This document shows, piece after piece, positions 1,300 through 61,689 of a stretch of 64,000 nucleotides of DNA. The translations under genes and the position numbers were made by a program. The notes under the pieces were generated by a model. It did not search any database. It was not told the origin of the DNA and saw nothing but the letters and a program-made list of their open reading frames with translations. The stretch covers positions 4,448,001-4,512,000 of the forward strand of contig OY820905.2 of the NCBI GenBank assembly GCA_963555755.3, in the 5' to 3' direction. The number at the start of each line of letters is the position of its first letter. The first letter of the stretch is position 1. The stretch is from Nitrospirales bacterium. GTDB taxonomy: Bacteria > Nitrospirota > Nitrospiria > Nitrospirales > UBA8639.

Positions 1300-1440
1300 G
1301 GGCACCTCTACAAACCAGGCATTTTTTGTGAGGGCAAGGAAGCCGCGCGCGGAAAACCGGAGTGTATGGGCGAATACATGAGGATGTGAGCACGCGGCTG
1401 ACGCCGCCATCACGGAAAAGGACGGTTTTTAGAGGTGCCC
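1300..1440. mobile_element. MITE family G, copy 1 (141 bp)
   Basis: TIRs GGGCACCTCTACAAACC / GGTTTTTAGAGGTGCCC; flanks TAAA/TCAA; inverted copy at 10215-10355. Confidence 0.88.
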
Positions 1441-1565
1441 TCAAATTTCAAATGACCACAATGCTGGGAGCTGGGCCATGCGACCTTTTGCATGGGCATG
1501 ATCCGTTTGAAACATTCGGGTTTTGGACTTCAGATTTGTTTCGGATTTCGAGATTCGAATTTCGA
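1441..1565. repeat. Heptamer-arm element H1 (allele lacking the insert seen in H2)
   Basis: CAAATTTCAAATGAC..GTTTGAAACATT..TTTCGGATTTCGAGATTCG; spacer similar to 8741-8816. Confidence 0.8.
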
Positions 1566-1644
1566 GGTTAGGAAAATTTGTTGGAGTGAGGTGTGAGAAA
1601 TACGAGGCAGGGGTAACAACGCTTTGTATTCACTCTTGACGGGT

Positions 1645-2589
1645 TCATCACTCCTTACGCGCTCTTGAATTGGGCGCCGTAGATTTTTCCACAAAGCCGC
1701 AATGAGACATTACGGTAGGTCTGGAAGAGCAAGCCCAGGATCTGATTCAAAAAGTCAAAGCTGCCGCACAAGCCACGGTTCGGCTCGAAAACAGGTACGG
1801 GCGCATCACGATGGGTTCCGAAAACCGATCGTCCACTTGGCCATGTTGAAAACAACGGACATGATTATTGCCATCGGGGCTTCAACAGGGGGCACGGAAG
1901 CCCTGCGGGTCATTCTGGAAGTTTTGCCCCCCGATGCCCTGTCAATCATTATTACTCAACCCATGCCTGAACGATTTACCAAACATTTCGCCGATCGGTT
2001 CAATCAAGAATTTGAGTCAAAGAAGCCGAAGAGGGGGGATAGTGCGACTCCTGGCCAAGCGATAATCGCTCTAGGCAGTGATCAATTGAGACGAAGCGGG
2101 GCACGATATCACGTGCACATCAATCAAGTTCCACCTGTCAATCGGCACCGGTCCTCCATGAATGTGATGTTTCGATCAGTTGCACACAGTGCCGGGAGTC
2201 ATAGTCTCGGGGTGCTTCTCACGGTAATGGGAAATGACGGGGCCGTAGGACCTGCGAGAAAATAACTTGAACAATCTCGCATCCAATCTTCGGGCCATCT
2301 TTGAACGGGCCTCAATCGAAAAACCCTCACCATAGCTGTGCTATGCCTCGAGTGTTTCTCAATCGTTCCGTCCAAATCCGACCCAAATTTTGGCGCGATA
2401 TTGATCAAGTTATTTTCTCGCAGGTCCTTAGAGATGAAGCAAGCTGGCGCCTTTACCATAGCCCAAGATGAAGACAGTTGTGTGGTGTTTGGTATGCCCA
2501 AGGAGGCCATTAAGGCCGGCGGCGTCGATAAAATCTTGCCATTGGATGAAATCCCATCCGTCATGCTGGAGCGGATTTCTCGGACATAA
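1645..2589 (+). pseudogene. cheB: cheB pseudogene, 5' truncated, frameshifted and MITE-interrupted
   Basis: Remnants ALELGAVDF.TKP, IGASTGG, TQPMP (normally QHMP), MGNDGA | MITE | [24 protein letters not shown]. Confidence 0.9.
2248..2427. mobile_element. MITE family A, copy 2, inside cheB
   Basis: GGACCTGCGAGAAAATAACTTG...CAAGTTATTTTCTCGCAGGTCC; flanks GTA/TTA. Confidence 0.9.
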
Positions 2590-2598
2590 ATATGCCTA

Positions 2599-2626
2599 TC
2601 AAGCTCTAAGAGCATTGAACCGATAC
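2599..2626 (+). promoter_or_regulatory. Candidate sigma-28 promoter
   Basis: TCAAG-N15-ACCGATAC upstream of the STAS gene. Confidence 0.55.
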
Positions 2627-2771
2627 GCTATGGAGGTGTCCTGAAGGATATGTATGACGAGGTTCGATCCCGAATTCGTATTCTCGATTGGGGTGTAACA
2701 TCCATCCTCATACATCATTCATCAGATTCGATTGATGCGTGCAGACTGTACATTTTGCCAGGGAGGACGCT

Positions 2772-3128
2772 ATGGAGTTAACAGAACGTCAGCAGGGGAC
2801 AGTAACAGTGTTAGATATCAAGGGCCGGTTTGATTTTGGAGCCCGTCGGGAATTTAAAGAGGCCATGGACCGCATTCAACAAGCTGGCTGCCGGCATGTG
2901 ATTCTCAATATCGAAGGTGTCTCGTTTGTCGATAGTTCGGCCTTAGGCTTGCTAGTTGTGGCGCACCAAAATCTGAAACTCAAAAACGGACGCATTTCCT
3001 TGGTGAATCCACAGTCGTATGTCCGGCAGATTTTGGATCTGGCCAACGTGCCAAGAATGATCCCGGTGTTTGCGACCATTCAAGAAGCCTGCTCGGGATT
3101 TGATCAGCCTGCTGCCGTAGCCCAATAA
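2772..3128 (+). CDS. Anti-sigma-factor antagonist (STAS)
   Basis: GRFD..FVDSSALGLL with the phosphorylatable Ser motif; RBS GGAGG before ATG 2772. Confidence 0.9.
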   Translation: MELTERQQGTVTVLDIKGRFDFGARREFKEAMDRIQQAGCRHVILNIEGVSFVDSSALGLLVVAHQNLKLKNGRISLVNPQSYVRQILDLANVPRMIPVFATIQEACSGFDQPAAVAQ

Positions 3129-3285
3129 GGGTTCGCGCAAGAATAACATCCTATGTTTGGGTGTTGAGGCGCCTGTCTGGCAAGGCGCGAGGACTGCGCA
3201 TACTCTCGGTATGGAAAGGACGAGCCACGCTGCCAGACGGGATGGATCGACGCCCAAACATAGGATGTTATTCTTGCGCGAACCC
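3129..3285. mobile_element. MITE family E, copy 1 (157 bp)
   Basis: Long perfect TIR GGGTTCGCGCAAGAATAACATCCTATGTTTGGG; TAA/TAA duplication of the STAS stop codon. Confidence 0.92.
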
Positions 3286-3540
3286 TAAAGTCGGGCCGGC
3301 CTCAGAGGTATGTTGACCGGTTGTTGAGGCCACCTGGCCCGTGATCATGGGAACACGCCGCAAGGTTTTAGAACGAATGGTCTGTTCTTGGTGCTGAAGC
3401 TCGTACACAGTCTTTTCCGTTTACCTCCACGGAAATGACCTGTGGTCGTCGAGGCTGTTCCTATCCATGTCCAATCCTCTCTGGAGTCTATTGAACGGAG
3501 AAACGGCAAGTTGGATCACAAAAGTCCGCGCAAGCTCTTA

Positions 3541-3720
3541 GGACCTGCGAGAAAATAACTTGATCAATCTCGCATCCAATCTTCGGGCCATCTTTGAACG
3601 GGCCTCAATCGAAAAACCCTCACCATAGCTGTGCTATGCCTCGAGTGTTTCTCAATCGTTCCGTCCAAATCCGACCCAAATCTTGGCGCGATATTGATCA
3701 AGTTATTCTCTCGCAGGTCC
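3541..3720. mobile_element. MITE family A, copy 3
   Basis: Nearly identical to copy 2; TTA/TTA flanks. Confidence 0.92.
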
Positions 3721-3723
3721 TTA

Positions 3724-3986
3724 GGGTCCGTCACGAAATAACCGGGACAATTGGCCGAGACGATTTTGGAGCGAGCCAAGGAGCGAAGAGCGCGCATACC
3801 GGGAGTATGGAAGCGATGAGCGACGCGGGCGGAGCCCAAAAGCGTCCGGCCCTTCGGGGAGGCCCATCTTTGGCCCGGGGCGGCGTTGCTCCTCGGTCAC
3901 AGAGCCCCGCTAGGCTCCCTCGTCGCGCCTTGCCCCGATCACAAATCTGGGCCTCCCAATTGTCCCGGTTATTTCGTGACGGACCC
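3724..3986. mobile_element. MITE family B (263 bp)
   Basis: Perfect TIR GGGTCCGTCACGAAATAACCGGGACAATTGG; flanks TTA/TGA; abuts copy A3. Confidence 0.88.
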
Positions 3987-4247
3987 TGAGCGCACCTGGC
4001 AAGATAAAAAAATGTCTTATCACCACCGAGGTGACCACGACTTTTTGTATTTCCCCATGCACACCAATATCTTACACGGCTGTTTTGCGTCCAACTGCCG
4101 TTTCTAGGTTGAATCAGGTAAAACCGTCAGGAACCTGGGACCGGGGATTAGTCGCTTGTTGCTGGACGTTCGGCACTGGAAAAGGAAGGCAAAGATCCTT
4201 ATGCACGAGCAACTAGCGACCAGCACCTAGCAACTCTTCAAGGCAAG

Positions 4248-5597
4248 ATGAAAAAACAGATTCCGTTAGATCAGCTCAAGCCCGGCATGTATCTTCTCAG
4301 CATGGACCAAAGTTGGTGGAAAACCCCCTTCCTGGTTCACCATCGATTTATCAAAAATGACGGAGAAATTGAAAAGATCCGGAAGGCTGGCGTTCAGTTC
4401 GTGGTCATTGATGAGTCAAAAGGCTTGCGTGATGAACCACCCGAATCTCTCGAATCTTCCGATCAATGCGATGCAGGCCTTTCTTCTGGAGGGCAGATTG
4501 AACTCTCGAGACTCGAGAGTGATCCCCTTCGCAATAATGAGTACGTTCACGAGGAGGTTTCTTCCTCCAACAGTACCGATACCCTCCCTTCAGCCCTGTT
4601 GTCTGACCAAGAGCAGGGGGCGTCCAAGTCAGAAATTCTAAAGATTGCACCCCAAGATGCTGCCCGTCAGGTTCGTACTGCCGCTGTTCGTGCCGTCGAA
4701 CAGGTGTTTGAAGGCGTGCGGTCCGGAGAACCACTTAATCATCCCCTCCTCGAGAAAATGGCACGTGCCCTCGTTCAACAGGTCGTGGATGATCCTCGAG
4801 CCTTTCCTCAGTTGGTGTTGGTTGGGAACCTCGCCGCCGTGGATAAGCATCTCTACAGCCATGTGGTGGATGTGTGCGCGCTTGCCGTGGTGCTCGGGAT
4901 CGAAATGGGATGGGAAGAACAAGAGTTACAGGCATTGGCACTGGGTGGCTTGCTCCATGATGTCGGATATATTCGGTTGCCAAATAATCTAGTGCGGAAT
5001 AGAAAACATGCAGGAAAGGCCGACCGCGTGTTGTTGGACACACATTCCGAGGTGGGACACTCCATTGTCAAACTCTCCTCGGACCTTTCGCTGGATGTCA
5101 AACAGATCATTCTGGAACACCATGAACGATTAGATGGGTCCGGAGAGCCTCACGGGTTGACTGGCGAGAGGCTTTCACCCTTGGGTCAAGTCGTCGGTCT
5201 TGTCGATCAATTTGATAAACTGACCAGCAACTGGGGAATGGGGCCGTTGCGTTCGTCAGCGCTGGTCTTGAGGGATCTCTATCAGGAAGCCAAGGACGGT
5301 CGTTTCCCTCTGCGTCCCATTGAACGCTTGATCCAATGCCTGGGCGTGTATCCCATCGGGAGTTTGGTCGAGCTTTCTACCGGGGAGCAGGGTGTTGTCA
5401 TCAGGACGAATCCCTCGAGCTTGCTGAAACCCACAATCAAATTGATCGTGGGGGCTGACCATCTTCCGTATCCGGCACCATGGAATATTGACCTCGCCTG
5501 TCCGGTATCCGGTGAGCCCGATCGATCGATTCGATCAGTGCTAAATGCCAATCAGGAACAGATCCAAGTCAAAAAATATTTTACTGTGGGCGTGTAG
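4248..5597 (+). CDS. HD-GYP domain protein with DUF3391-like N-terminus
   Basis: LKPGMY..W.KTPF N-terminus; LLHDVG; HHERLDGSGEP; GVYPIGSLVELSTGE. Confidence 0.88.
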   Translation: MKKQIPLDQLKPGMYLLSMDQSWWKTPFLVHHRFIKNDGEIEKIRKAGVQFVVIDESKGLRDEPPESLESSDQCDAGLSSGGQIELSRLESDPLRNNEYVHEEVSSSNSTDTLPSALLSDQEQGASKSEILKIAPQDAARQVRTAAVRAVEQVFEGVRSGEPLNHPLLEKMARALVQQVVDDPRAFPQLVLVGNLAAVDKHLYSHVVDVCALAVVLGIEMGWEEQELQALALGGLLHDVGYIRLPNNLVRNRKHAGKADRVLLDTHSEVGHSIVKLSSDLSLDVKQIILEHHERLDGSGEPHGLTGERLSPLGQVVGLVDQFDKLTSNWGMGPLRSSALVLRDLYQEAKDGRFPLRPIERLIQCLGVYPIGSLVELSTGEQGVVIRTNPSSLLKPTIKLIVGADHLPYPAPWNIDLACPVSGEPDRSIRSVLNANQEQIQVKKYFTVGV

Positions 5598-5665
5598 GTG
5601 AAGCGTCATAACCTTTCGGCACGCATCACGCTTTACGCTCCACTGATTCGGAAGAAAGCTTTTTG

Positions 5666-8600
5666 ATGTCGCACAGGACTCCCTCACACTCACCGCAGGC
5701 TTCGATAGAGCAAGAATTGCGGTGGTTTCACGCGTCGAATCGGGCTGTGCTTAATTCCTTAGCGATAGCGGTGTGTACACTCGATCGCAGTGGTGCCGTG
5801 GAGTCGTTGAATCAGGAAGCTGTTCGGTTATTAGGATGGGGCGAATCCACCTGCCGTGGCCGATCCTTTCATGATCTCACCCAGTGTTCGTCCATGGTGG
5901 TGGGTAAGTCGTCTCAGGATGTCTGCCCCATTGCTGACGTGTTACAGACAGGCGAATCTCTGTGGGTCCCTCGAGTAGGTTTGATGAGCCGGAGTAGAGA
6001 CTGGCTCATGGTCGAACTGACCTGTACTCCCCTTGTTGATGAAGGGGCATCTGGTGTCGTGCTGAGTTTCCGGGATTTAGCGACTCAGATTCAGATGGAA
6101 GATGACCTGCATCGTCTCGCCTCGATTCCAGATGAAAGCCCGTTTCCCATCGTGGAGTTCAACATTCAAGCCAATATGTTGTATGCCAATCCTTCCATGA
6201 CTCGACTTATGGAACAAGCGGGATTTCGTGAAGAAGGATTCTCTGCGGCATTGCCCACTGATGTGCAAACCATCGTGGAACGATGTTTGACCCTCGGGGT
6301 GTCCGAACACGATGTCGAGGTCGATGTGGGAAGGAAGCAATATGCCTGGTTGTTTTGTCCGTTAAAAGATTTACAGCTTGTTCGAGGGTACGGCATTGAT
6401 ATCACAGAGCGGAAGCAAGCTGCCGATGAACTTGGAGCGTTTGTGGAGGTGTTAGGCCAAAAGAACCATGAGTTGGACGAGGCTCTCACCAAGGCCGAGG
6501 CAGCTACCCAAGCCAAAGCCGCCTTCCTCGCTATGATGAGCCATGAAATTCGCACCCCGTTAAATGGGATCATTGGTATGACGTCCCTGCTGACAGACAG
6601 TTCCTTGACCCCCGAACAACGCGAAGATGCCGATACGATTCAGAAATCCGCTGAAGGGCTCTTGAGGATTATTAATGATATTTTGGATTTCTCGAAGATC
6701 GAAGCCGGGAGATTGGATTTCGAAGTCATTGACTTCGATCCGCATACCTTGCTTGAGGATGTCTTGGACTTGTTGGCGCTGCGGGCCCACGACAAAGGGC
6801 TGCATTTGGCCGGGCGGGTCCTTTCGGATGTGCCGTCCTGTCTTCGAGGTGACCCCATGCGGTTGCGGCAAATTTTCACCAACCTCATTGGGAATGCGAT
6901 CAAGTTTACTGATCACGGGGAGGTTGTCGTTGAAATCCATGCAAGGGGTTGTGACACGATCAGCGAATCGGAAGGTGGTCCCGAAGGGGAGGACCTGGTG
7001 GTACTGCATTGTACCGTTTGTGATACAGGAATCGGGATTTCTCCTGAAGGGCAACGGCGGTTATTTCAGCCATTTTCTCAAGCCGATTCCACGACCACAC
7101 GCAAGTATGGGGGAACGGGGTTGGGGTTAGCGATTTCCAAACAATTAGTCGAGTTAATGGGGGGAACCATTGGGGTGTGGTCCATGCCAGATCAGGGGAG
7201 CGAATTCTGGACCATCCTCCCGTTTGCGTCCCAATCACACCGTCCCATTTCAGAACCGTTACCCGAATTTCGCCTACTCCAAGGCCGTTCGGTCTTGCTG
7301 CTTGAATCCCATGAACCAACGAAAGTGGGAATTGAGGAATTGTTGAAGGCCATCAATGTCTCCTGTCAGAGCAAGGACTCCCTTGCTGGCGCCCTTCAAG
7401 CTCTGCGCGAAAGGCCTATCCATTCCCAGATGTATGATATGGCCCTCATTGATTGTGAGGGATGTGGGGATGATCCGAAACGCCTCATTCAGGAGTTGAG
7501 GCAGGCGATGGGAGAATCAATTGTGCCCCTGGTCCCCCTTCTTCGTGGGAATCGTAAGGGGAGTGAGCTGGCCGTTGAGGCTGGTGGAGCCTTATGGCTG
7601 ACCAAACCCGTGCGTCGATCGCGACTGTATAAATGTTTGCATGCGCTCATACATCAGCCGGAGGCTTCTGTCAGTCGAGAGTCGTTACCGGCGGATGTAG
7701 ATACGGTTTTGGCACAAGGTCGACCCTCGTCCCACGCCTTTCAAGGCCGGATTTTGGTGGCTGAGGATAATCCCATTAACCTCAAGGTGGTCGTGGGCAT
7801 GTTGAACAAAACGGGAGTGGTGGTTGATACCGTCACGAACGGGAGGGAAGCCTGCGAAGCGGTGGCGAAGCAATCCTACGACCTGGTGTTCATGGACTGG
7901 CAAATGCCGCAGATGGATGGCCTCCAAGCCACGGTAGAAATACGGAGACGAGAGGCGGCAGGCCGTGAAGCGTTAAGCGTGAAGCGTCATGAGAACGACG
8001 ATGATTCTTCTCACGCATTACGGATCACGCCTCACGAGACTTCTCCGTCTCACGTCCCCATTGTAGCCATGACGGCCAATTCTATGCCTGGTGATCGGGA
8101 GAAATGTCTGGCGGCAGGCATGGATGAGTATTTGGTCAAGCCGCTTCGCCTGTCGGCGGTGGTCGAGGTGTTAGCGAACTGGTTAACTCCTCAAGGGGCT
8201 GGATCGCATGTGGAACCGGATCACGAAACAGAACCGGGGTTCAGAAAAGCGGTGGATGGGGACGATAAGAGAAGAACAGAGGGGTGTGGAGAAACTTCAA
8301 CTCATTCCCATACGTTATGGGATCCAACTATCGCGCTTTCTCATATGGATGAGGATCACGTCCTGCTACAGGAGTTAATAGCACTGTTTATGGAGACCGG
8401 CCCCGCGACGCTCTCAAAGATTCGGGAGGCCCTCGATAATCAAGATTACGTGATGGCTGAACGATCCGCGCATACGCTCAAAGGTTCACTCGGGGCGTTT
8501 CGTGCGAAATCGGTGCAGGCCTGTGCAGGGGAATTGGAACGACTCGCGTCTGAGCATCGGTCCGACAGCGTTGAGTCTGTGTATCAGCAGTTGTCTGAAA

Positions 8601-8677
8601 GCACGGTACAGCTCCTTCAGGAATTTCATGAATATGTGAATAATAGTAAGGAGTCAGAAGTAAGGAGTGAGAAGTGA
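5666..8677 (+). CDS. Hybrid sensor histidine kinase (PAS-HisKA-HATPase-REC-REC-Hpt)
   Basis: MSHEIRTPLNG, NLIGNAIKF, DTGIGI, GGTGLGL, FMDWQMP, AHTLKGS. Confidence 0.95.
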   Translation: MSHRTPSHSPQASIEQELRWFHASNRAVLNSLAIAVCTLDRSGAVESLNQEAVRLLGWGESTCRGRSFHDLTQCSSMVVGKSSQDVCPIADVLQTGESLWVPRVGLMSRSRDWLMVELTCTPLVDEGASGVVLSFRDLATQIQMEDDLHRLASIPDESPFPIVEFNIQANMLYANPSMTRLMEQAGFREEGFSAALPTDVQTIVERCLTLGVSEHDVEVDVGRKQYAWLFCPLKDLQLVRGYGIDITERKQAADELGAFVEVLGQKNHELDEALTKAEAATQAKAAFLAMMSHEIRTPLNGIIGMTSLLTDSSLTPEQREDADTIQKSAEGLLRIINDILDFSKIEAGRLDFEVIDFDPHTLLEDVLDLLALRAHDKGLHLAGRVLSDVPSCLRGDPMRLRQIFTNLIGNAIKFTDHGEVVVEIHARGCDTISESEGGPEGEDLVVLHCTVCDTGIGISPEGQRRLFQPFSQADSTTTRKYGGTGLGLAISKQLVELMGGTIGVWSMPDQGSEFWTILPFASQSHRPISEPLPEFRLLQGRSVLLLESHEPTKVGIEELLKAINVSCQSKDSLAGALQALRERPIHSQMYDMALIDCEGCGDDPKRLIQELRQAMGESIVPLVPLLRGNRKGSELAVEAGGALWLTKPVRRSRLYKCLHALIHQPEASVSRESLPADVDTVLAQGRPSSHAFQGRILVAEDNPINLKVVVGMLNKTGVVVDTVTNGREACEAVAKQSYDLVFMDWQMPQMDGLQATVEIRRREAAGREALSVKRHENDDDSSHALRITPHETSPSHVPIVAMTANSMPGDREKCLAAGMDEYLVKPLRLSAVVEVLANWLTPQGAGSHVEPDHETEPGFRKAVDGDDKRRTEGCGETSTHSHTLWDPTIALSHMDEDHVLLQELIALFMETGPATLSKIREALDNQDYVMAERSAHTLKGSLGAFRAKSVQACAGELERLASEHRSDSVESVYQQLSESTVQLLQEFHEYVNNSKESEVRSEK

Positions 8678-8701: not shown

Positions 8702-9016
8702 CAAATTCGAAACTCGAAATCCGAAACACATTCAAATGTTCAAATTTCAAATGACTCAAACGCTAAGAGCTGGGCCACGTGACCTTTTGCGTTAGTATGA
8801 TCCGTTTGAAACATTGCGTCGCAGCGTAAGTGATTCAAGAACAACACAGGTTCATGGGTTCCCGGTTCATGGTTGGAGAAAGATGAAGGTCAAACCTAGA
8901 ACGGTGAACCTTATAACCTGACTCCAGAGCGTTTGTGAGACAAGGGAAGTCATTTGAAACATTGGGGCTTTGGATTTCGGATGTGTTTCGGATTTCGAGA
9001 TTCGGATTTCAAATTT
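8702..9016. repeat. Heptamer-arm element H2 with internal insert I
   Basis: CGAAACTCGAAATCCGAAAC.. / ..TTTCGGATTTCGAGATTCGGATTTC arms; insert 8817-8952 between two TTTGAAACATTG. Confidence 0.85.
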
Positions 9017-9026
9017 AGGGAACCTT

Positions 9027-9995
9027 ATGTCTAAACCGTCTGACACGTCTGAAATGGTATTAGTGGTTGATGATGATCCTGTCACCTTGGAATGTTTAAT
9101 GGAGACAGTGCGATTGTTCGGTTTAGGAGTATGTGCGGCTTCGGATGGAGTGCAGGCTCTGCGGATGTTTGAAGAACACCAGCCGAGTATCGTGTTGACA
9201 GATGTTCGGATGCCGAACATGGATGGATTGGCGTTGACACATCAGGTGAAGGCGCGGCGTCCTGATTGCCCTGTGATCATCGTGACCGGATATGGAGACG
9301 AATCCACAACCGTGGCGGCCTTGAAAGCCGGGGCCTCCGATTTCTTGCATAAACCGTTTCAACTTTCGGAGTTAAAAAATACCTTACAGCGGACCCTCTC
9401 GCTTGTTCGAGCGCGGTCCATGGAAACCCAGGCCCTCCAGTCATTGACGAAGCTGACGTGGTCGTTCGAAATCGAGAATGACCTTGAATCGTTAGGTGGG
9501 ATTCTGACGGTCATGCTCAGACCGATTGATGTCTGGTTGTCCGAGGCTGGTCAATTGCATGTGCGAATGGGACTGCAGGAGTTACTCATCAATGCTGTCG
9601 AGCATGGGAATTTGGGTATTTCCGCTGAGGAAAAAGGTGAGGCACTGATGAATGATACGTATGACGCCTTGCTAGACGAACGGCGTCACCTGCCCATCAA
9701 TGCCACACGTCGTGTGAAGGTGTGGATGGAACATGATGCGGCCACTCACACGTTTCATTGCCGAATTTGCGATGAGGGGGAGGGGTTTGATTGGGCGCCG
9801 CTCCTTCAGAGTAATGCCGAAGCGATTCCCTCCCTCGCGGGATCCGGGCGAGGAATTTTTTTAGTCAAAACCCTCATCCCGCACATCCAATATTTTGGCC
9901 GAGGGAACGAAGTCGCGCTGACCGTTCAGTATGGTGGAGTGGTAACACGAGAGGAGTCAGGAGTCAAAAGTCAGGCGTCAGGTATGGGGAGCTAA
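9027..9995 (+). CDS. Response regulator fused to an RsbW-like anti-sigma/Ser kinase HATPase domain
   Basis: REC (VVDDD, TDVRMP, KPF) plus LQELLINAVEHGN, ICDEGEGFD, GSGRGIFL. Confidence 0.88.
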   Translation: MSKPSDTSEMVLVVDDDPVTLECLMETVRLFGLGVCAASDGVQALRMFEEHQPSIVLTDVRMPNMDGLALTHQVKARRPDCPVIIVTGYGDESTTVAALKAGASDFLHKPFQLSELKNTLQRTLSLVRARSMETQALQSLTKLTWSFEIENDLESLGGILTVMLRPIDVWLSEAGQLHVRMGLQELLINAVEHGNLGISAEEKGEALMNDTYDALLDERRHLPINATRRVKVWMEHDAATHTFHCRICDEGEGFDWAPLLQSNAEAIPSLAGSGRGIFLVKTLIPHIQYFGRGNEVALTVQYGGVVTREESGVKSQASGMGS

Positions 9996-10045: not shown

Positions 10046-10367
10046 AACTCGAAATCCGAAACACATCCGAAACCCAACACTCGAATGTTTCAAACAGGGT
10101 CCTTTGATCGAAAGGGCTCAGTCCCTATTCGTCCCTTGTCATTTCGACCCTTGGGAGAAATCTCGGTTTCGCATTCACCCAACATTACGTTGGCAAGTGA
10201 CATTCGAGTTTTGAGGGCACCTCTAAAAACCGTCCTTTTCCGTGATGGCGGCGTCAGCCGCGTGCTCAAATCCTCATGTATTCGCCCATACATTCCGGTT
10301 TTCCGCGCGCGGCTTCCTTGCCCTCACATAAAATGCCTGGTTTTTAGAGGTACCCTTGAATTTGTTC
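10046..10367. repeat. Heptamer-arm element H3 interrupted by MITE G
   Basis: AAACTCGAAATCCGAAACAC..GAATGTTTCAAAC..CATTCGAGTTTTGA[G]TTGAATTTGTT. Confidence 0.7.
10215..10355. mobile_element. MITE family G, copy 2
   Basis: Reverse complement of 1300-1440; TTGA/TTGA duplication. Confidence 0.9.
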
Positions 10368-10884: not shown

Positions 10885-12834
10885 GTGGCGGTGATGGCAC
10901 CTGTTTTGGCAACGACCTTTCTCCATGATGGGGATCCCTTAGTTCGGCGTTCAGCGGTAGAAGCATTACATCCTGACGCCTGTGCCGATGAGGGTGAGCG
11001 CTCCGCGGCTATTGAATCGCTAGTCTGTGTTTTGAGTGATCCGCATGTGGCTGTCCAAGAAGCCGCCATGGCTGCCTTGGTGATGTTTGATTCTGGCCTT
11101 GTTGCCACGCACCTCCTTCCTGTTTTGCACAGTACCGTACAACATCGGAATGTGGCCATTGAAGTTCTTCAACGATTAAGCCCCACGGCTCTCCCGGTTC
11201 TCTTTCGTGCGGTGCCCGATTCTGACAAGCATATCCGTAAGTTTATTGTCGATATTGTTGGGCATATTGGAAGTCCCTCTGCGGTCGATGGCCTGTTGGA
11301 GTTCGTGCACGATTCGTGTCCGAATGTCCGTGCGACCGTCTGCGGATCACTAGGGGTGTTGGGTGATCAACGTGCGGTGGGTCCGTTAATTCGTATGGTT
11401 CAAGACCCGGAAGAATGGGTCATGTTTAGTGCGATCAACGCCTTGGGGATTCTGAAGAATGGTGAGGCGGTGCCCATGCTGCGGGGGCTGTTGTCTGTTG
11501 AGGACAGTGCGATTCGTTGTGCGGTTGTCGAGGCGTTAGGCGCCATTGGTGATCCTCAGGTGTTACCAGACTTGTTGCCTATGCTGCCAACCGCTCGGAT
11601 TCCACTTCGGAATGTGCTGTTTGTCACGATCATGGAACTGGTCGGAGATCAGGCTGAAGTCTTTCAGCGAGAAGAAATGCGGGATTATCTGTTTGCTGGA
11701 TTGGTCCAAGCGTTGAAGACCAGAGAACCGGAAGTGCAATTAGCGGCTCTCCATGGGCTGCGTTTGATCGGGAATACGAGAGCCACTGGCGCCTTGTTAT
11801 CTTTTCTGGAGGGTCAACGGGCCGGAGAAGAGGAACTTGAAGCTGCGGTGCTCCATGCCCTGACCCAGATTGGGGATGAAGACGAGTTGCTTCAGGCAGC
11901 GAGGAACGGATCTGAACGCGTGGCATTACTGTGTATTGACGCGCTTTCAACTCGTCGAGTGATCCATGCTGTTCCTGTCTTAAGCCAATTGGTGGTTCAC
12001 TCAGAGAATAGAGAAATTCGTCGAGCGGCATTAGTGGCGTTAGGTCGCATAGGGATCGAGGAAAGCGGGGAGTCGGCAGTCTTAGTGGCCCTTCAAGATC
12101 GCAGTGGGTGTGTCAGGAAGGAAGCCGCGAGAATTGTGGCTGAAAAAAAGATTCAGGATGCTGGCCATGCATTATGGAGTCGATTAGATCATGAACCGTA
12201 TCCCGACGTCCTTGTTGAGCAAGTCCGAGCCATCATCAATCTCGAATGTCAAGATCGAGTGACCATCCTTCGAGGGTTACTCGATCTTGATCGCCCAGAA
12301 GTCAGAGAAGCCGCGATTGCTCATTGGCCTGATATTCACGATCCAAGGGTTCGACAGCTGTTGGATGACCATGTGGATGATTCCGATTGGCACGTGCGCT
12401 TGTGCATCGTAGAACGATTGGTCGTGGAGCAGGACGAAACTCTGTTGGATATGTTTATTACGGCTTCCGCGGATCCACATCCCTATGTCAGGCAAGCCGC
12501 AGTTCAGGCAGTGGGTCAATTTTCAGGAGAGGCGGTGTGTGTCACCTTACGCACCGCGGTGATCAGTGACCCAGATATGTGGGTGCGTACTCGTGCCGTC
12601 GAGCAACTGGTGAAACTTCATGATGTGGATGCCTGTCAGATGTTGACACACATCCTTAAGGATTCGCCTGTTCCTCTCCAAATTGCCATCGTCAGAGCCC
12701 TAGGGACCATAGGCAACAGTACTGTGGTAGAGATACTTCAGGAGATGCAATCCCACGAAGAATCAGAAATCGAAGAAGCCGAATCTAGGAGCCTGTCCAA
12801 GATTAGGGATCGTCGCGAGGGGGTGATGGTTTGA
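10885..12834 (+). CDS. HEAT/PBS-lyase repeat protein; C-terminus replaced by MITE D
   Basis: Many D....VR..A..ALG repeats; start uncertain; last ~15 codons come from the MITE. Confidence 0.85.
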   Translation: MAVMAPVLATTFLHDGDPLVRRSAVEALHPDACADEGERSAAIESLVCVLSDPHVAVQEAAMAALVMFDSGLVATHLLPVLHSTVQHRNVAIEVLQRLSPTALPVLFRAVPDSDKHIRKFIVDIVGHIGSPSAVDGLLEFVHDSCPNVRATVCGSLGVLGDQRAVGPLIRMVQDPEEWVMFSAINALGILKNGEAVPMLRGLLSVEDSAIRCAVVEALGAIGDPQVLPDLLPMLPTARIPLRNVLFVTIMELVGDQAEVFQREEMRDYLFAGLVQALKTREPEVQLAALHGLRLIGNTRATGALLSFLEGQRAGEEELEAAVLHALTQIGDEDELLQAARNGSERVALLCIDALSTRRVIHAVPVLSQLVVHSENREIRRAALVALGRIGIEESGESAVLVALQDRSGCVRKEAARIVAEKKIQDAGHALWSRLDHEPYPDVLVEQVRAIINLECQDRVTILRGLLDLDRPEVREAAIAHWPDIHDPRVRQLLDDHVDDSDWHVRLCIVERLVVEQDETLLDMFITASADPHPYVRQAAVQAVGQFSGEAVCVTLRTAVISDPDMWVRTRAVEQLVKLHDVDACQMLTHILKDSPVPLQIAIVRALGTIGNSTVVEILQEMQSHEESEIEEAESRSLSKIRDRREGVMV

Positions 12835-12948
12835 GTCAGATGTTTCGATCGTTTGAGGCGAATAGTGATGACTATGTAACGAAAAGGATCGAAAGATCTG
12901 GCCAAATCCAGCGCACCCGCAGTAGATCCGCTAATCTTGGACAGGCTC
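12789..12948. mobile_element. MITE family D (160 bp)
   Basis: TIR GAGCCTGTCCAAGATTAG / CTAATCTTGGACAGGCTC; flanks CTAG/CTCG. Confidence 0.9.
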
Positions 12949-13000
12949 CTCGTGCTCTACGCCAATTGACGACTCCTATTTCCCCACCTGAGGTGTCGGT

Positions 13001-21593: not shown

Positions 21594-21901
21594 CAAATCC
21601 GAATACCGAAAATCCGAAACCCGAATCTCGAAATCCGAAACACATTCAAATGTTCAAATTTCACATGACTCAAACGCCGGAGGACAAACAGTACGAGCTT
21701 GAAGGTCGAGTATGCCAATTCGCTCGCTCTGCCCAAATGATCTGTTTGAAACATTGCGTCGCAGCGTAAGTGATTCAAGAACAACACAGGTTCATGGGTT
21801 CCCGGTTCATGGTTGGAGAAAGATGAAGGTCAAACCTAGAACCTAGAACGGTGAACCTTATAACCTGTGGATTTGTTTCGGATTTCGAGATTAGGATTTC
21901 G
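21594..21901. repeat. Heptamer-arm element H4 with four-helix-bundle-like relic and insert I
   Basis: Inverted near-copy of 25135-25433. Confidence 0.88.
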
Positions 21902-21949
21902 TATTACACCACTAACATTATCATGAAAAACAAGAAGGAGGTGGAAAGC

Positions 21950-23403: not shown

Positions 23404-23529
23404 AGATCGGTCGCTCGTGGTGAGTTGTTTGTTGTTCGTTGTTCGTCGCGAGTACTTGGGATCGTACAGTCCTCTTTCTTACTAGCGACGAGCAACCAGC
23501 GACTATTTTCCTCATGAGGTACTGCTAAG

Positions 23530-25134: not shown

Positions 25135-25433
25135 GGAAATTCGAAATCAGAATATCGACATTCGAAACACATCCACAGGTTATAAGGTTCACCGTTCTAG
25201 GTTCTAGGTTTGACCTTCATCTTTCTCCAACCATGAACCGGGAACCCATGAACCTGTGTTGTTCTTGAATCACTTACGCTGCGACGCAATGTTTCAAACA
25301 GATCATTTGGGCAGAGCGAGCGAATTGGCATACTCGACCTTCAAGCTCATACTGTTTGTCTTCCGGTGTTTGAGTCATGTGAAATTTGAACATTTGAATT
25401 TGTTTCGGATTTCGACATTCGGATTTCGGATTT
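25135..25433. repeat. Heptamer-arm element H5
   Basis: Reverse complement of H4, including insert I at 25176-25286. Confidence 0.88.
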
Positions 25434-25569: not shown

Positions 25570-25887
25570 ATGGCTATATCAGGATCTGATCCTGTCAATG
25601 ATTTGAATCAAGCATTGTTTGGGGTGCGTCGCCCACAAGGAGGGGACAAACGTACAGGGGATGCCTCAACAACTCCATCCGTCGGAAGGATTGGGGATAC
25701 CGTTGCCTTCTCTCCTGGAATTATGGAACGAGAAGCGGTGGTCAATCAAATCCGAGCATTACCGGATATCCGTGTTGAGCAATTGGCCTCGGTTCAACAG
25801 GCTCTTGCTTCAGGGCAACTCCATGTGGATGGGGACCGTCTCGCCGCCGGTGTCATTCGGGAAATAGTGTTAAACGCCGTGGTTTAG
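25570..25887 (+). CDS. flgM: Anti-sigma-28 factor FlgM
   Basis: DTVAFS..PDIRVEQL..ALASGQLHVD..LA; lies between flgJ and flgN. Confidence 0.88.
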   Translation: MAISGSDPVNDLNQALFGVRRPQGGDKRTGDASTTPSVGRIGDTVAFSPGIMEREAVVNQIRALPDIRVEQLASVQQALASGQLHVDGDRLAAGVIREIVLNAVV

Positions 25888-26398
25888 GACCTGAGAGAAA
25901 ATAACTTGGACACTATCGCGCCAAGATTTGGGTCGGATTTGGACGGAACGATTGAGAAACACCCGAGGCCTAGCACAGCGATGGTGAGGGTGTTTCGATT
26001 GAGGCCCGTTCAACCTAGAAACGGCAGTTGGGCGCAAAAAAGACGTGTAAGAAATTGGTGTGCATGGTGCAATACAAAAAGTCGTGGTCACCTCGGTGGT
26101 GATGAGACCTTTTTGTATTGTGCGAGGAGCCTGTCCGAGATTAGCGATCGTGACGAGGGGGGGCTGGTTTGAGTCAGATGTTTCGATCGTTTGAGGCGAA
26201 TAGTGGTGACTATTTAACGAAAAGGATCGAAAGATCTGGCCAAATCCAGCGCACCCGCAGTAGATCGGTCTAATCTTGGACAGGCTCCTTGGTGCGCCAA
26301 GAGCTTGCGCGGACTTTTGTGATCCAACTGCTGCTTCTAGGTTCAATGATGGCCCGAAGATTGGATGCGAGATATCCAAGTTATTTTCTCTCAGGTCC
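25887..26398. mobile_element. MITE A copy 4 containing C (26014-26341) containing D (26127-26287)
   Basis: A ends with TTA/TTA; C with TTCAA/TTCAA; D TIRs GAGCCTGTCC/GGACAGGCTC. Confidence 0.9.
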
Positions 26399-26576
26399 TT
26401 AATGGGGTATTGAAATATTCAAAGATGGGTGGTCCATTATGTGTAGGCCTTCAGTCGTCGCTCGTATCTCGTGAAAGAACGACATACGAGATACGCTTCA
26501 CGAATCACGTCTCACGCTTCACGTTCACAAAGAACGGAGCGAATTGTGTGGTCCCATTTTTGGAGGACATCTGCCA

Positions 26577-28748: not shown

Positions 28749-28917
28749 GGCGTCAGAACGCGTGATGCGTGAAGCGTAATGCGTGATGCGAAAGACGAGA
28801 GACAAGGGCCTTGAAGACTCATGGGTGATTCGTAAAGGGTGAAGGGGGAAGAATGTTGAGTATGAATCTTCACGCTTCACGCATCACGGATCACGCTTCA
28901 CGAAAAGGCATCTGATT

Positions 28918-31490: not shown

Positions 31491-31647
31491 GGGTTCGCGA
31501 AAGAATAACTTCCCATGTTTGGGCGTCGATCCATCCCGTCTGCCGGCGTTGCTCGTCCTTTCCATACGAGGAGTATGCGCAGTCCTCGCGCCTTGCCAGA
31601 CAGGCGCCTCAACACCCAAACATGGGAAGTTATTCTTTCGCGAACCC
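31491..31647. mobile_element. MITE family E, copy 2
   Basis: TIR GGGTTCGCGAAAGAATAACTTCCCATGTTTGGG; flanks TTA/TTG. Confidence 0.92.
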
Positions 31648-34038: not shown

Positions 34039-34160
34039 GGGAACGTTGAAAAAAGCCGCCAGCGGCGTTCTCGCCATTTTGCCGTGCTCACGTACTCCAT
34101 GTACGCTCCGCGCGTCAAAATGGGTGCGGCCTTGCTGGACGGACTTTTTTGAACATTCCC
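34039..34160. mobile_element. MITE-like family F, copy 1 (122 bp)
   Basis: GGGAACGTTGAAAAAAG / CTTTTTTGAACATTCCC; inverted copy at 61568-61689. Confidence 0.88.
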
Positions 34161-38679: not shown

Positions 38680-39431
38680 CGATTGTGCAGGCTCGGATGG
38701 GCTCGACCCGCTTGCCGGGAAAAGTCATGCGATCTCTGATCGGGAGGCCAGTTCTCTGGCATGTCGTGGATCGTCTCCGGTTCTGTCAGAACATCGGTGC
38801 GATCGTCGTCGCCACGACAACTGAGCGGGAAGACGATGTTATTGATGAGTGGTGTTGTGCGCATTGGGTTCGATGCTTTCGTGGGAGCCAAGAGGATGTC
38901 CTCGATCGCTATTATCACGCCGCGAAGTTTTATCAGGCGGCTTCCATCCTTCGGATCACTGCAGATTGTCCGGCCCTCGATCCCGTGGTGGTTGATGAAT
39001 TGCTGAGCCAATATGAGGCCCATGCCTATGATGCTTGTGGATTAGCGGGAGGATTCCCTGATGGACTGGATTGTGAGGTGATGTCATTCTCTGCGTTAGA
39101 ACGAGCGTGGAAGGAAGCCGAGATGGCATCGGAGCGTGAGCACGTCACACCCTATATTCATGCACACCCTGATCTCTTTCGCGTGGGAAAATTTGAGCGA
39201 TTTTACAATCTTGCACATCATCGATGGACGCTTGACGAAGAACCGGATTTCCATTTTCTGGAGCGAGTGTTTCATCGCTTGTATCAGGAAGATCGCCCGT
39301 TTCTGACGTCGGATATTTTGGCCCTGTTAGAGCGTGAGCCTGCATTGATGGACATCAATCAAGGGATCACTCGAAACGAAGGCTATCTCCGATCCCTTCA
39401 ATCCGATTATCGTGTCGGTTCAAGGACCTGA
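38652..39431 (+). CDS. SpsF/PseF-like cytidylyltransferase
   Basis: QARMGSTRLPGK, RGSQEDVLDR, RITADCP, REHVT. Confidence 0.9.
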   Translation: METTSQRPVAIVQARMGSTRLPGKVMRSLIGRPVLWHVVDRLRFCQNIGAIVVATTTEREDDVIDEWCCAHWVRCFRGSQEDVLDRYYHAAKFYQAASILRITADCPALDPVVVDELLSQYEAHAYDACGLAGGFPDGLDCEVMSFSALERAWKEAEMASEREHVTPYIHAHPDLFRVGKFERFYNLAHHRWTLDEEPDFHFLERVFHRLYQEDRPFLTSDILALLEREPALMDINQGITRNEGYLRSLQSDYRVGSRT

Positions 39432-39602
39432 GAGAAAATAACTTGGACATCTTGCATCCAATCTTCGGGCCGTCTTTGAACGGGCCTCAATCGAAAAACC
39501 CTCAACATAGCTGTGCTATGCCTCGGGTTTTTCTCAATCGTTCCGTCCAAATCCGACCCAAATCTTGGCGCGAGATTGTCCAAGATATTTTCTCTCAGGT
39601 CC
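39424..39602. mobile_element. MITE family A, copy 5
   Basis: GGACCTGAGAGAAAATAACTTGG..CTCAGGTCC; flanks CAA/TAA; supplies the stop codon of the upstream gene. Confidence 0.9.
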
Positions 39603-51190: not shown

Positions 51191-52227
51191 ATTCACCAAC
51201 ACAGGAGAACATGCTTTGTTCCGAAACAGGAAGAAGTCGTGCTGGAACTGAGCGCAAGCATATCACTATCGCCAAAGATCCGACTCGCCATTTAGCGTTC
51301 CCTGATGTGTGCCAGGCACGATCAGGTGAGATGTATGTCGTGTATCGGGACGGTCAGCAACATGTCGATCAGTCGGGTCGAGTCATGGTTGTTCAAGGAT
51401 CGGGCTCTGCCGAACAGTGGGAATTTGGTCAGCCTATGGTCGTGTGTGATACAGATTGGGATGATCGAGATCCATCCATTGTTGAACTGTCCAATGGATC
51501 GCTTCTTATTAATTTTTTTCGATTGAATATTGCGACCAAGGAATTGAAATTATCACTGACCCAGTCTTGGGATAAAGGAGAGACCTGGTCAGAGCCATGG
51601 GATGTGCACGTTCCAGGATTTACCAATACCTTGGCCGTGAGTGATGCGATTGTGGAATTGCCATCTGGAGAATGCCTGATGGCGGTCTATGGAGTATCGA
51701 ATTCAGGGGAGAGTGGATCGTTTGTGTTGAGATCCCAAGATACGGGGAAAACGTGGCCTGATGTCATACCGGTAGCCGTCGCAGACGCTCCCATTTATGA
51801 AGAGCCTGCGTTGGTGTATCGGGAGAATGGGCAACTTGTGACCTTGTTAAGAACAGATAATCGTGGGTTGGGGTATGTGTATCAGATGACTTCTTTTGAT
51901 GATGGCTACACTTGGAGTCAACCGGAACGTTTAGATCTTTGGGGATACCCTTCTGATTTGGTGGCATTGGCAAATGGTGAGTTGCTTGCCACGTATGGAT
52001 ATCGTCAGTTGCCAACCGGGATTCGATACTGTCTCGCCAAAGGACCAAACCGTTGGTCTATTCGTCAAGAAAGAATCCTTCGGTCAGATGGTCATGATGG
52101 AGGAGAGGTAGGCTATCCATCTTCTGTTGAGTTAGGAGGGGGCGAAGTTGTGACGGTCTATTATTTTACAGACCCATGTGGAGGCATGCCCTATATTGCA
52201 GGGACCGTCTTTCGATATGAATCTTAG
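51184..52227 (+). CDS. Sialidase-like BNR/Asp-box protein, no signal peptide apparent
   Basis: AFP; Asp-boxes SWDKGETW, SQDTGKTW, SFDDGYTW; GYPS. Confidence 0.85.
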   Translation: MLNSPTQENMLCSETGRSRAGTERKHITIAKDPTRHLAFPDVCQARSGEMYVVYRDGQQHVDQSGRVMVVQGSGSAEQWEFGQPMVVCDTDWDDRDPSIVELSNGSLLINFFRLNIATKELKLSLTQSWDKGETWSEPWDVHVPGFTNTLAVSDAIVELPSGECLMAVYGVSNSGESGSFVLRSQDTGKTWPDVIPVAVADAPIYEEPALVYRENGQLVTLLRTDNRGLGYVYQMTSFDDGYTWSQPERLDLWGYPSDLVALANGELLATYGYRQLPTGIRYCLAKGPNRWSIRQERILRSDGHDGGEVGYPSSVELGGGEVVTVYYFTDPCGGMPYIAGTVFRYES

Positions 52228-52383
52228 GGTTCGCGCAAGAATAACTTCCCATGTTTTGGCGTCGATCCATCCCGTCTGGCGGCGTTGCTCGTCCTTTCCA
52301 TACGAGGAGTATGCGCAGTCCTCGCGCCTTGCCAGACCGGCGTCTCAGCACCCAAACAGGGGAAGTTATTCTTGCGCGAACCC
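52227..52383. mobile_element. MITE family E, copy 3
   Basis: GGGTTCGCGCAAGAATAACTTCCC..GGGAAGTTATTCTTGCGCGAACCC; flanks TTA/ATA. Confidence 0.92.
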
Positions 52384-55338: not shown

Positions 55339-55354
55339 GATTCAAGGAGGAATC
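55339..55354 (+). promoter_or_regulatory. CsrA-type binding hairpin over the fliC ribosome-binding site
   Basis: GATTC-AAGGAG-GAATC: 5-bp stem with ANGGAN hexaloop. Confidence 0.7.
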
Positions 55355-55357
55355 AAC

Positions 55358-57334: not shown

Positions 57335-57742
57335 ATGGAGGAATTCAGTGTCATAAGAGCATTCGGCCAATCGACACCTGGTCCTCCCAAGCCTCCTGCT
57401 GTTCCTTCACGACTTCCCAAACTTGGTGGAAGTGAAACCAAGGTTGCAGGTTTGCCGGGAGCGGGGGGAGAGAGTGTAGGCGCTACTTCTCAATCTCCCA
57501 AAAGTGTCAGTTCGGCTGAAGTGAAACCTGCCGTTGAGGATTTAAATCTTCAGTTGGAAATAGCCAATCGTATACTTCGGTTTTAGGTCGATGAGACTAT
57601 CAAGGAAATCAAGGTTCTGGTCATTGACGAAGAAACTGGAGAGGTCGTGAGGACCATACCCCCGGAAGCTTCCATAAGGTTTGCCGCCAATGGGCACCAC
57701 GTGGGCTCTTTACGGTACAGGGGTAATCCCATTCTTGATTGA
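57335..57742 (+). pseudogene. flaG: FlaG with in-frame amber stop
   Basis: LRF*VDE..VIDEETGEVVRTIPPE; TAG at 57584-57586 precedes the FlaG signature. Confidence 0.85.
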
Positions 57743-57799
57743 ATAGGGGACAGTCGGGTATTTGCGCAGTGCGCATGACTTCAGGAGGAAGAATGTAGC

Positions 57800-60157: not shown

Positions 60158-60162
60158 GCTTT

Positions 60163-60597
60163 TTGGTTGTGAATTCCCAACTTCAGATTTATCGTCAGCA
60201 GCAAGTCCAGCATGAAATTGAACAGGCGTCGCCCGTTCGGCTTGTCGTCATGCTGTATGACAAAGCCATGTCGCTTCTTCGGCAAGCCGTGCTCCATATC
60301 GATCGGAATAATGTCAAAGCCAAAGGTGAAGCCCTCAATCGGGTCGTGGAGATCATAGGGGAATTGCAGGCTGTCCTGAATGGGGAAGAGGGGGGAGTGG
60401 TCGCACAAAACTTGGATGCCATGTATGAATTCATGATTCGATCGGTCACCTTGGCCAATTTGAATAACGACCCCCAACCCCTTGATGGTGTCTTGATGGT
60501 GTTGGAAGAATTGCGAAAAGGCTGGCAAGAACTTGAACAGATGACTCAAGACGGCGAGGTTGCCGCTGTGACCAGTCCACTCAACAGCGTGGGGTAG
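60163..60597 (+). CDS. fliS: Flagellin chaperone FliS
   Basis: Y..QASPVRLVVMLYD..NLDAMYEF..ELRKGW. Confidence 0.95.
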   Translation: MVVNSQLQIYRQQQVQHEIEQASPVRLVVMLYDKAMSLLRQAVLHIDRNNVKAKGEALNRVVEIIGELQAVLNGEEGGVVAQNLDAMYEFMIRSVTLANLNNDPQPLDGVLMVLEELRKGWQELEQMTQDGEVAAVTSPLNSVG

Positions 60598-60742
60598 AAA
60601 CTTGGTAACTACGCAGGTGGATAGACTGAAGGCTGAAGGCTTTTAGGGGGAAATCATGCGTGATCATACAACACGTCGGGCATTTCTGAGTGATAGCCTT
60701 CAGCCTTCAGCCTACATGCCTGAGTAGTCACGAAACTTGCTT

Positions 60743-61270
60743 ATGTCGAACATCCCTACATTCATTGAACAGCATCAAGCCTATCTTCATCTTCAACAAC
60801 AGATCTCGAAGGCGATCCATAACCGTGACGAGAGCCTATTGGTCCAATTGAAACAGGTGAGCCATGAATTATTCGCTCAACTTGATGCGGCCAGGAAAGA
60901 ACTCGTAACGGCCACTGGCTCTGCATGGCCCAATCAGTTTTTTCCTCAATCAGATCTTGCCCAATTGGTTCAGCTCATGGAACAGGCTCAGCGACATGTC
61001 CAAGAAAACGAAACGGCCCTTCAAACCTGGTTAGGCCAAATGAAGGTCGATATCCAACACTATCAGACGTCTCAATCACAACGTGGAGTGTTGGCAGCCT
61101 ATATCCAGCAAAGGCAAGCTGGATCCCACCGAACCACTGCATTTGAACACGATACGCTCTCTCCTGAGTCGTTGGATGTCGCCCCATCCCCAACGATCCC
61201 GTCGAGTCCTTGGGTGGTCCCTCCCAAAGATCCGGAAATGGTGGGACACCAAGTCAACGAACAATCCTAA
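60743..61270 (+). CDS. Helical hypothetical protein, possibly FliT-like
   Basis: Gln-rich helices directly after fliS; function inferred from position only. Confidence 0.6.
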   Translation: MSNIPTFIEQHQAYLHLQQQISKAIHNRDESLLVQLKQVSHELFAQLDAARKELVTATGSAWPNQFFPQSDLAQLVQLMEQAQRHVQENETALQTWLGQMKVDIQHYQTSQSQRGVLAAYIQQRQAGSHRTTAFEHDTLSPESLDVAPSPTIPSSPWVVPPKDPEMVGHQVNEQS

Positions 61271-61449
61271 GGGCCTGTGAAACAATAACTTAGACATCTC
61301 GCATTCCATATTCGGGCCATCTTTGAACGCGCCTCAATCGAAAAAACCTCAACATAGGCCTGCTATGTCTCGGCTTTTTCTCAATCGTTACGTCCAAATC
61401 TGACCCAAATCTGGACGCGATCTTGTCCAAGTTATTGTTTCACCGGCCC
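61271..61449. mobile_element. MITE family A variant (179 bp)
   Basis: TIR GGGCCTGTGAAACAATAACTT / AAGTTATTGTTTCACCGGCCC; body homologous to A; TAA/TAA on a stop codon. Confidence 0.88.
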
Positions 61450-61567
61450 TAATATTCCTTCTGGTGTCCAGACTAAATGTGTTTCTGTCTTTCCTGGTTG
61501 GGTCTGTCGAATATTTCATGACAAAAACCCACAAATGCGCCAGGACATACGACCAACATCAGTGAGA

Positions 61568-61689
61568 GGGAATGTTCAAAAAAGTCCGTCCAGCAAGGCC
61601 GCAGCCCTTTTGACGCGCGGAGCGTACTCTCAGTACGTGAGCACGGCAAAATGGCGAGAACGCCGCTGGCGGCTTTTTTCAACATTCCC
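61568..61689. mobile_element. MITE-like family F, copy 2
   Basis: Reverse complement of 34039-34160 with few changes. Confidence 0.88.

Follow-up and report, generated by a model that had tools for sequence, protein, structure and literature searches.

The DNA analyzed here, referred to as the window, is a stretch of 64,000 nucleotides (nt) from a Nitrospirales bacterium (assembly GCA_963555755.3, contig OY820905.2, positions 4,448,001 to 4,512,000 of the forward strand), and it holds a chemotaxis and flagellar gene cluster in a genome of 4.62 Mb, as seen from 20 scanned proteins. The genome also carries seven repeat families, A to G, with lengths of 121-263 bp and 39-160 full-length copies per family. 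They are short, multicopy, devoid of a transposase gene and bounded by terminal inverted repeats, which the long form of family F has through an outer repeat, and were thus regarded as MITEs (miniature transposable elements with inverted repeats). Counted as full-length copies over all loci of at least 40 nt, the latter including fragments, the families amount to 99/170 (A), 39/63 (B), 65/265 (C), 44/181 (D), 160/199 (E), 132/319 (F) and 121/139 (G). The fold of every family is an end-to-end rod, made of two arms in B. No match to Rfam 15 was obtained at the gathering score across the window, and only two chance-level matches were found in positions 1-4200 at E ≤ 5. Here, we describe a hairpin-bearing core that families F, G, E and B carry under different ends.

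The core-bearing copies in the window are distributed as follows. Family G is represented by a 141-bp element with ends of the IS5 insertion sequence (IS) type and a 4-bp duplication at 1300..1440 on the plus strand, with the full core at about 1328-1411, and by a second copy with a full core at 10215..10355 on the minus strand. The E element at 3129..3285 (plus strand, 157 bp, 3-bp TNA duplication) has its core at 3174-3237, and two further E copies with the core lie at 31491..31647 and 52227..52383, both on the minus strand. The two-armed B element spans 263 bp (3724..3986, plus strand). Family F appears as a short element with a full core and the 5-bp duplication TGAAA (34039..34160, minus strand), and as a long element (61500..61689, plus strand) that consists of an outer left end at 61500, a drifting spacer of 68 nt, an inner terminal repeat at 61568, a core at about 61587-61670 and a right end at 61689. 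The remaining elements belong to A, C and D. A 179-bp A element with a 3-bp TNA duplication, holding only the apical module, is found at 187..365 on the plus strand, and further A copies, at 2248..2427, 3541..3720, 39424..39602 and 61271..61449, are on the minus strand. The A copy at 3541 adjoins B, and both insertions split a family C element, part of which remains at 3990..4108 (minus strand). Family D includes a 162-bp element with IS1182-type ends and TA duplication (12788..12949, plus strand), where the hairpin is present and the core was undetected, a right-hand remnant that carries an F right end (1146..1233, plus strand), and an element (61911..62203, plus strand) into which an F variant with an internal deletion is nested at 62010-62132. 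Nesting is rampant, with family C nested with A, B and D; for instance, the A element at 25887-26398 (plus strand) holds a C element at 26014-26341 with TTCAA duplicated, which in turn holds a D element at 26126-26288. Empty sites were also observed, as one related-strain contig lacks both the A copy at 61271 and the neighboring long F element, including its spacer.

A previous sequence-only reading of this DNA had proposed that otherwise dissimilar families share an ERIC-like layout of AAGG, a 5-bp stem with a small loop, and RACGC, whereas A and D would have the hairpin only. All the quoted stems were located where this layout implies: in F at 34091-34105 (minus) and 61623-61637 (plus), in G at 1363-1378 (plus) and 10277-10292 (minus), in E at 3199-3213 (plus), 31563-31577 (minus) and 52299-52313 (minus), in B at 3795-3809 (plus), in A at 268-282, 2331-2345, 3624-3638, 39506-39520 and 61353-61367, and in D at 26199-26214 with a loop of six nucleotides and 61984-61998 with one of five. 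Departures from the layout were small: E at 3199 has CACGC for RACGC, G at 10277 has GGAA for GGAG, the D stem at 12788 is mismatched and the A stem at 25887 is altered. The ERIC core that had been quoted was confirmed in Escherichia coli K-12 (L001), and the outer motif there reads CAAGG...AACGCC, as in F. Three features had escaped the sequence-only reading, namely that the opposite strand of B contains another core (3876-3939), that the F mobile unit mostly begins about 70 nt upstream of the hairpin, e.g., at 61500, and that C elements are nested with A, B and D. Scanning the main contig (C1) with a descriptor composed of AAGG, a 5-bp stem containing TA, a loop of 4-6 nt and RACGC gave 543 sites, of which 256 are F, 122 E, 118 G, 42 B, two B/E, and three fall outside those families. 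About three sites were expected under an order-3 Markov model, and the layout is therefore not a matter of chance; since copies within a family are non-independent, this shows four families and not 540 independent events.

To compare the cores, two covariance models with rough E-values were used, one built from 21 F-type cores only and the other from 11 K-12 ERICs. In the window, the F model recognized both G copies (E 8.4e-5 at 1300 and 5.5e-5 at 10215) and the three E copies (E 0.021 at 3129, 0.21 at 31491 and 0.004 at 52227), followed by the second arm of B, on the minus strand (E 0.41), and by the A tip, with a partial match at 255-295 (E about 1). Within 13 K-12 loci its nine best matches were ERIC cores, the best with E 3e-5. 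The ERIC model, in turn, ranked the window in the order F, F, G, G (E 0.024-0.25, the first being the short F at 34039), and then came a non-element match at 0.32 and B at 0.8; over the genome, its best E was 8e-4 when 150 of 1207 candidates were scored. These matches indicate that F, G, E and B carry a homologous core. Membership is clear for F and G, moderate for E and B, and limited to the apical part for A; family D gave no match with either model at E ≤ 10 in the window. As lengths, ends and duplications differ, the elements are, judging by these models, related to ERIC by their core and not ERIC by membership.

The core was also found outside this genome. Of 151 genomes of the phylum, 26 contained F-like DNA, most of them from the same order, and near-identical F elements occur in Nitrospira and Nitrospirales records. 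A GTDB scan with a 16-letter apical motif returned at least 120 stretches, and the 80 listed came from Proteobacteria, Bacillota, Bacteroidota, Desulfobacterota, Myxococcota, Planctomycetota, Fibrobacterota and others. The outer AAGG/RACG motif accompanied 22 of the 83 GTDB matches with sufficient flank, against 5.5% in shuffles; it was lacking in the other 61, many alphaproteobacterial copies having another outer motif, and a strict terminal-repeat search found ends in 25 of 85. One of the GTDB matches, a Rickettsia RPE1 element (L101) that scored above the TIGR01045 cut-off, was recognized by the F core model with E 0.003, while no RPE family match was found in the one F frame scanned. BLAST of the F core against plasmids gave short partial matches only (13 records). 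Collectively, the relatives, the apical motif across phyla and the RPE1 match agree with the earlier suggestion of a widespread element system. Some GTDB stretches showed particular arrangements: core units form direct tandem arrays in L056, L081, L088 and L126, some without obvious terminal repeats, an array of this kind being also present in our genome at C1:453977-454443; a core-bearing hairpin of Bacillus (L059) ends immediately before the conserved 5' motif of the 16S rRNA gene; and an F element lies just before a tRNA-Leu gene (L057).

Next, target duplications were scored among copies with intact end anchors. A 3-bp duplication was observed in 45 of 69 tested copies of A (99 in total) and in 33 of 69 of E (160 in total), a 5-bp duplication in 39 of 54 of C (65 in total), a TA duplication in 14 of 30 of D (44 in total), and a 4-bp duplication in 75 of 94 of G (121 in total). 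The ends were then matched to autonomous elements. The D end matches a two-copy IS1182 of its own genome at 17 of 18 positions, providing an intact cognate helper, and the G end matches IS5 elements from other samples, also at 17 of 18. When metagenome contigs were scanned for G ends (at least 119 stretches, 80 examined), five distinct elements of 1.2-1.3 kb with frames of about 350 amino acids appeared, and the single one that was scanned belongs to the IS5 family; among short G-ended metagenome elements, some contained the core (L244, E 0.001; L194, E 0.013) and some other cargo. Both A and B ends match, at 14 of 18 positions, an ISAzo13 element having a TTA duplication, and are probably of the ISAzo13 type. 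Matches to autonomous IS were weak for E (11/18) and F (12/18), and none was found for C. The E-end pattern was present in only one of 251 genomes of the phylum, namely that of the window, and therefore no autonomous partner was found for E; moreover, BLAST of E and A ends against plasmids gave chance-level matches only. The core was not found within the autonomous elements searched, i.e., five loci and then 25 loci, where two flank-level matches had E 0.25 and 0.76. These end matches, together with the cross-matches of the models, support the earlier proposal of one homologous fold under different IS-type ends.

Some candidate partners were discarded. Among 17 loci examined for A-end matches in other genomes, most were chance or A copies, and one (L308) was ISAzo13. 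Likewise, what looked like autonomous elements bounded by A, E, F or D ends proved to be MITEs into which IS1634, IS630, IS110 and IS5 elements had nested. The IS1634-like, IS630-like and IS5 insertions within A, E and D are found at C1:2549815-2551856, 2332331-2333548 and 2884740-2886610; these MITEs serve as landing sites for other elements. At C1:1893133-1894492 and some ten comparable loci, F elements contain a small module in which an IS110-like transposase gene (343-amino-acid frame, with the family judged from the sequence) repeatedly occupies one site, which suggests that this element may target the F MITE.

The long F elements provided an internal comparison. An outer end was detected 66-80 nt upstream in 106 of 200 F cores, and at this end the 5-bp duplication was exact in 56 of the 106 and conserved in at least four of five positions in 71, against 5% in the control, while no duplication was found at the inner repeat. 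The discovery of this outer end overturned our preliminary view that F lacks a target duplication. In matched pairs (100 copies), identity was 62% for the spacer and 90% for the core, a drift that would be overstated if the spacer arose more than once, as it may have. Of 106 long F elements, 74 have a right end that matches the inner repeat, which stays uncut, and two have one that matches the true left end. The same layout was seen by eye in several relatives; a promoter in the spacer, also judged by eye, was unconvincing.

We then asked how the core varies. Among 70 model-fitted matches, 92% of the cells pair versus 62.5% in shuffles, with double changes at 18 of 20 pairs, in an alignment that leans towards the model and has the apical stem fixed by the search pattern. 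Without use of an alignment, 70 of 79 cases were Watson-Crick at the pair under the G.A loop, versus a shuffle mean of 32 and a maximum of 48. Template switching in quasi-palindromes yields compensatory changes without selection, and since it can mimic covariation in palindromes, three tests not based on covariation weigh more, one of them being the comparison within long F given above. At pairs common to the folds of both strands, G.T and A.C variants were balanced in single copies (104:97), and G.T was in excess when variants were shared by at least three copies (78:46, p 0.005, overstated, as all p values here, because copies share ancestry). The unpaired motif showed 70 private mutations at 87 positions and 22 shared ones, compared with 11 private and 24 shared in the apical loop (p 7e-6) and 71 private and 46 shared at other unpaired positions (p 0.025). 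Core mutations thus arise freely and seldom spread. The apical loop drifts fast, with 70 variants in 297 sites and lengths of 4-8 nt. The earlier claim of selection for shape holds in part: the fold is under selection, and so are specific unpaired nucleotides, not shape alone. Two likenesses of the hairpin were dismissed. A resemblance of the apical stem to XerC/D dif arms was ruled out by the loop length, which varies from 4 to 8 nt. All 36 matched copies of B have a UNCG-like hexamer, which was considered as an RNA signature and dropped because it lies in the inter-arm junction and reads, in reverse complement, as a GNA DNA loop.

The orientation of the copies was also analyzed, with gene calls based on a long-frame heuristic. 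The pooled data showed no bias of the core strand relative to transcription, with sense:antisense counts of 75:91 near the upstream gene and 79:82 far from it, or to replication, with 271 of 543 cores on the leading strand. In agreement, the core's share of private mutations was equal in sense and antisense copies (31/96 and 71/203, p 0.70). Because of both results, the filter on the core appears to act at copying, not after landing.

With ends, duplications, core homology and core mutations that arise freely yet rarely spread as the observed basis, we lean towards the interpretation that F, G, E and B are MITEs whose homologous, strand-specific core, common to ERIC and RPE1, likely aids their own copying by a DDE transposase acting in trans. 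The core would act in cis at the donor site, where it would probably be exposed for a short time as single-stranded DNA, the core strand folding while unpaired in the lagging-strand template or in a transcription bubble. A conserved host factor may then read the purine-rich internal loops, i.e., the tandem G.A beside G.T under the 5-bp stem, plus the AAGG/RACGC loop, and the bound fold would favor transposase engagement near the fork, where cut-and-paste followed by repair from the sister could give a net gain. New ends would likely come from one element inserting into another and capturing a terminal repeat close by, long F being an apparent example. As the acting form, single-stranded DNA is mildly preferred to RNA.

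Several observations weigh against this interpretation. Families C and D, where no core was detected, are similarly abundant; the core is hence at most an advantage and no requirement for MITE success. B's own duplication is weak (6/33), B being mostly carried within C. Neither ISAzo13 nor a cognate IS5 transposase was found in this assembly by Pfam and BLAST searches, of which the BLAST controls gave signal and the Pfam positive control did not, and the latter is missing although the G copies are 97% identical to one another's query. The G.T excess is reversed in B alone (1:3), the shared variants may be ancestral, and the ratio for the loop is raised by saturation. Tight-operon orientation skews in opposite directions in F (28:46) and G (15:4), and family A has 36 leading versus 63 lagging copies. 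RNA and DNA parameters prefer the same strand (73/79 and 74/79), and in F and B the core strand folds no better than the opposite one. Finally, the one RNA run on record gave contig fragments of low depth, and the run that holds the related-strain contig may be DNA.

The same data allowed us to weigh other explanations. That the core acts at the RNA level, within transcripts of the host, either as a nuclease-processing or stability signal or as a shield that makes insertions tolerable, and is kept by host-level selection, we consider rather unlikely. ERIC RNA reportedly alters mRNA stability via RNase E in an orientation-dependent manner, according to the accessible portion of PMC2229807; G.U and tandem G.A suit RNA; and of the six elements with the core that lie immediately upstream of tRNA genes, five have the sense orientation, the hairpin of L059 standing directly before a 16S gene. 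Yet tRNA and rRNA genes are not enriched as targets, the adjacency to tRNA genes (6/47) being like that to protein genes (323/3055), single-copy variants look neutral, and neither the pooled orientation nor the share of private mutations in the core distinguishes sense from antisense. Alternatively, the core could be functionless cargo that was inherited and that nesting and horizontal transfer have spread, with template switching in the hairpin keeping the arms complementary. The rampant nesting and the success of C and D without the core fit with it, and template switching weakens both the raw covariation and the match between inner repeat and right end of long F. We nevertheless regard it as decidedly unlikely, as template switching would erase mismatched loops and act strand-symmetrically, whereas the unpaired motif is the least variable among shared variants, G.T exceeds A.C in shared variants only, and the spacer of long F drifts far faster than the core.

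Two further explanations replace the DDE transposase by another enzyme. Copying through an RNA intermediate, where the core is bound by a reverse transcriptase of the host or of an intron and integration of the cDNA takes place at the terminal repeats, would account for the fast-drifting spacer and loop and for the missing cognate transposases of A, B, E and G, and it draws on 35 reverse-transcriptase matches in the genome and a strand-specific fold; it is very improbable, since no 5' truncation bias was found (55 left-only versus 40 right-only copies, F left out) and each family has a fixed duplication length, consistent with DDE ends. The least probable is that the core is a REP/REPIN-like hairpin recognized by a Y1 (HUH) transposase, with the IS-like ends being incidental: 17 Y1 transposase matches, single-strand folding and the GTDB copies (L056, L081, L088, L126) that lie in tandem arrays and show no obvious terminal repeats speak for it, but the duplications of 2-5 bp are family-specific, the ends match three DDE families, and the repeats around RAYT-like loci are of a different, GGGTCA-type sequence.

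Other repeats accompany these elements. The mobile load of the genome is very heavy, with about 490 kb of high-copy repeats, 294 transposase-like loci and the above-mentioned reverse-transcriptase matches. A 140-bp repeat at 60597-60737 of the window has about 34-fold BLAST coverage and is missing from the related-strain contig. A 296-nt inverted repeat with 96% identity (21610-21905 and 25138-25433) flanks 3.2 kb of flagellar genes and has a partial third copy at 8797-8909. Intergenic, paired, degenerate heptamer tandem repeats make up two sets, one at 7964-8036, 8644-8672, 9954-9982, 23481-23513, 26493-26523 and 28761-28902, and the other at 1506-1575, 8953-9022, 21862-21905 and 25389-25432; they resemble the heptanucleotide arrays of Geobacter, as described in the accessible part of PMC2700814. 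A separate two-arm palindromic family was found at C1:2472083-2472249 and 3637149-3639922, and around an 11-copy large transposase-like gene. Low-copy elements at C1:2911406-2911490, 1279144, 1731461 and 842552 comprise one with the core and unrelated ends, and others with D-, C- or B-like ends and other interiors.

A core that crosses ERIC, RPE and other MITEs is not stated in the open literature searched, a scope outside which the primary ERIC and RPE papers and ISfinder lie, and the accessible portions of PMC2229807, PMC11602168, PMC2700814, PMC10969869, PMC2267715, PMC3116915 and PMC3184786 do not mention it. Tentatively, ERIC, the RPE1 of Rickettsia and hairpin repeats found in many phyla may constitute one ancient superfamily defined by a portable single-strand module and not by transposase or ends; this module would recruit a conserved host factor, boost copying by any DDE transposase and swap ends. 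If true, the shared core under unrelated transposase ends would unite ERIC and RPE, classic repeats treated as lineage-specific, and revise the notion that the interior of a MITE is the neutral remainder of an IS. The question can be tested in this genome, as it combines one core with several kinds of ends (F, G, E, B), one kind of ends with several cargoes (G-type), an intact D helper, and the neutral spacer that long F has built in beside its conserved core.

Among known systems, the elements are closest to ERIC/IRU/RU-1 of Enterobacteriaceae and Vibrionaceae, which the parts available of PMC2229807 and PMC10969869 present as restricted to enterobacteria and vibrios: both are rod-shaped non-coding MITEs with the same apical loop motif and outer AAGG/AACGC. 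Unlike ERIC, which has 127 bp and TA termini in these sources, they measure 121-263 bp and have unrelated ends and mostly 3-5 bp duplications. RPE1 differs in that it often inserts in frame in genes and has other ends, and for both ERIC and RPE no mobilizing mechanism is shown in reviews, as far as the excerpt of PMC2229807 goes. Like RUP, which goes with IS630-Spn1, and Correia/NEMIS, the elements are short and gene-less, with target duplications, empty sites and terminal repeats that match autonomous IS in D and G and probably in A and B. The MITE interior is usually regarded as a remnant of IS deletion (PMC11602168, in the portion available); in contrast, the interior described here was not found in the cognate autonomous elements searched and appears again under ends that are unrelated. 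As candidate relatives, the palindromic multicopy sequences of Geobacter metallireducens were interpreted as regulator binding sites or RNAs in the available sections of PMC2700814. REPINs with RAYT, following the accessible text of PMC3116915, are also non-autonomous hairpins whose fold is proposed to matter for copying, and which form clusters and attract other insertions; REPINs depend on a Y1 transposase, whereas the window elements have DDE-type ends and fixed duplications.

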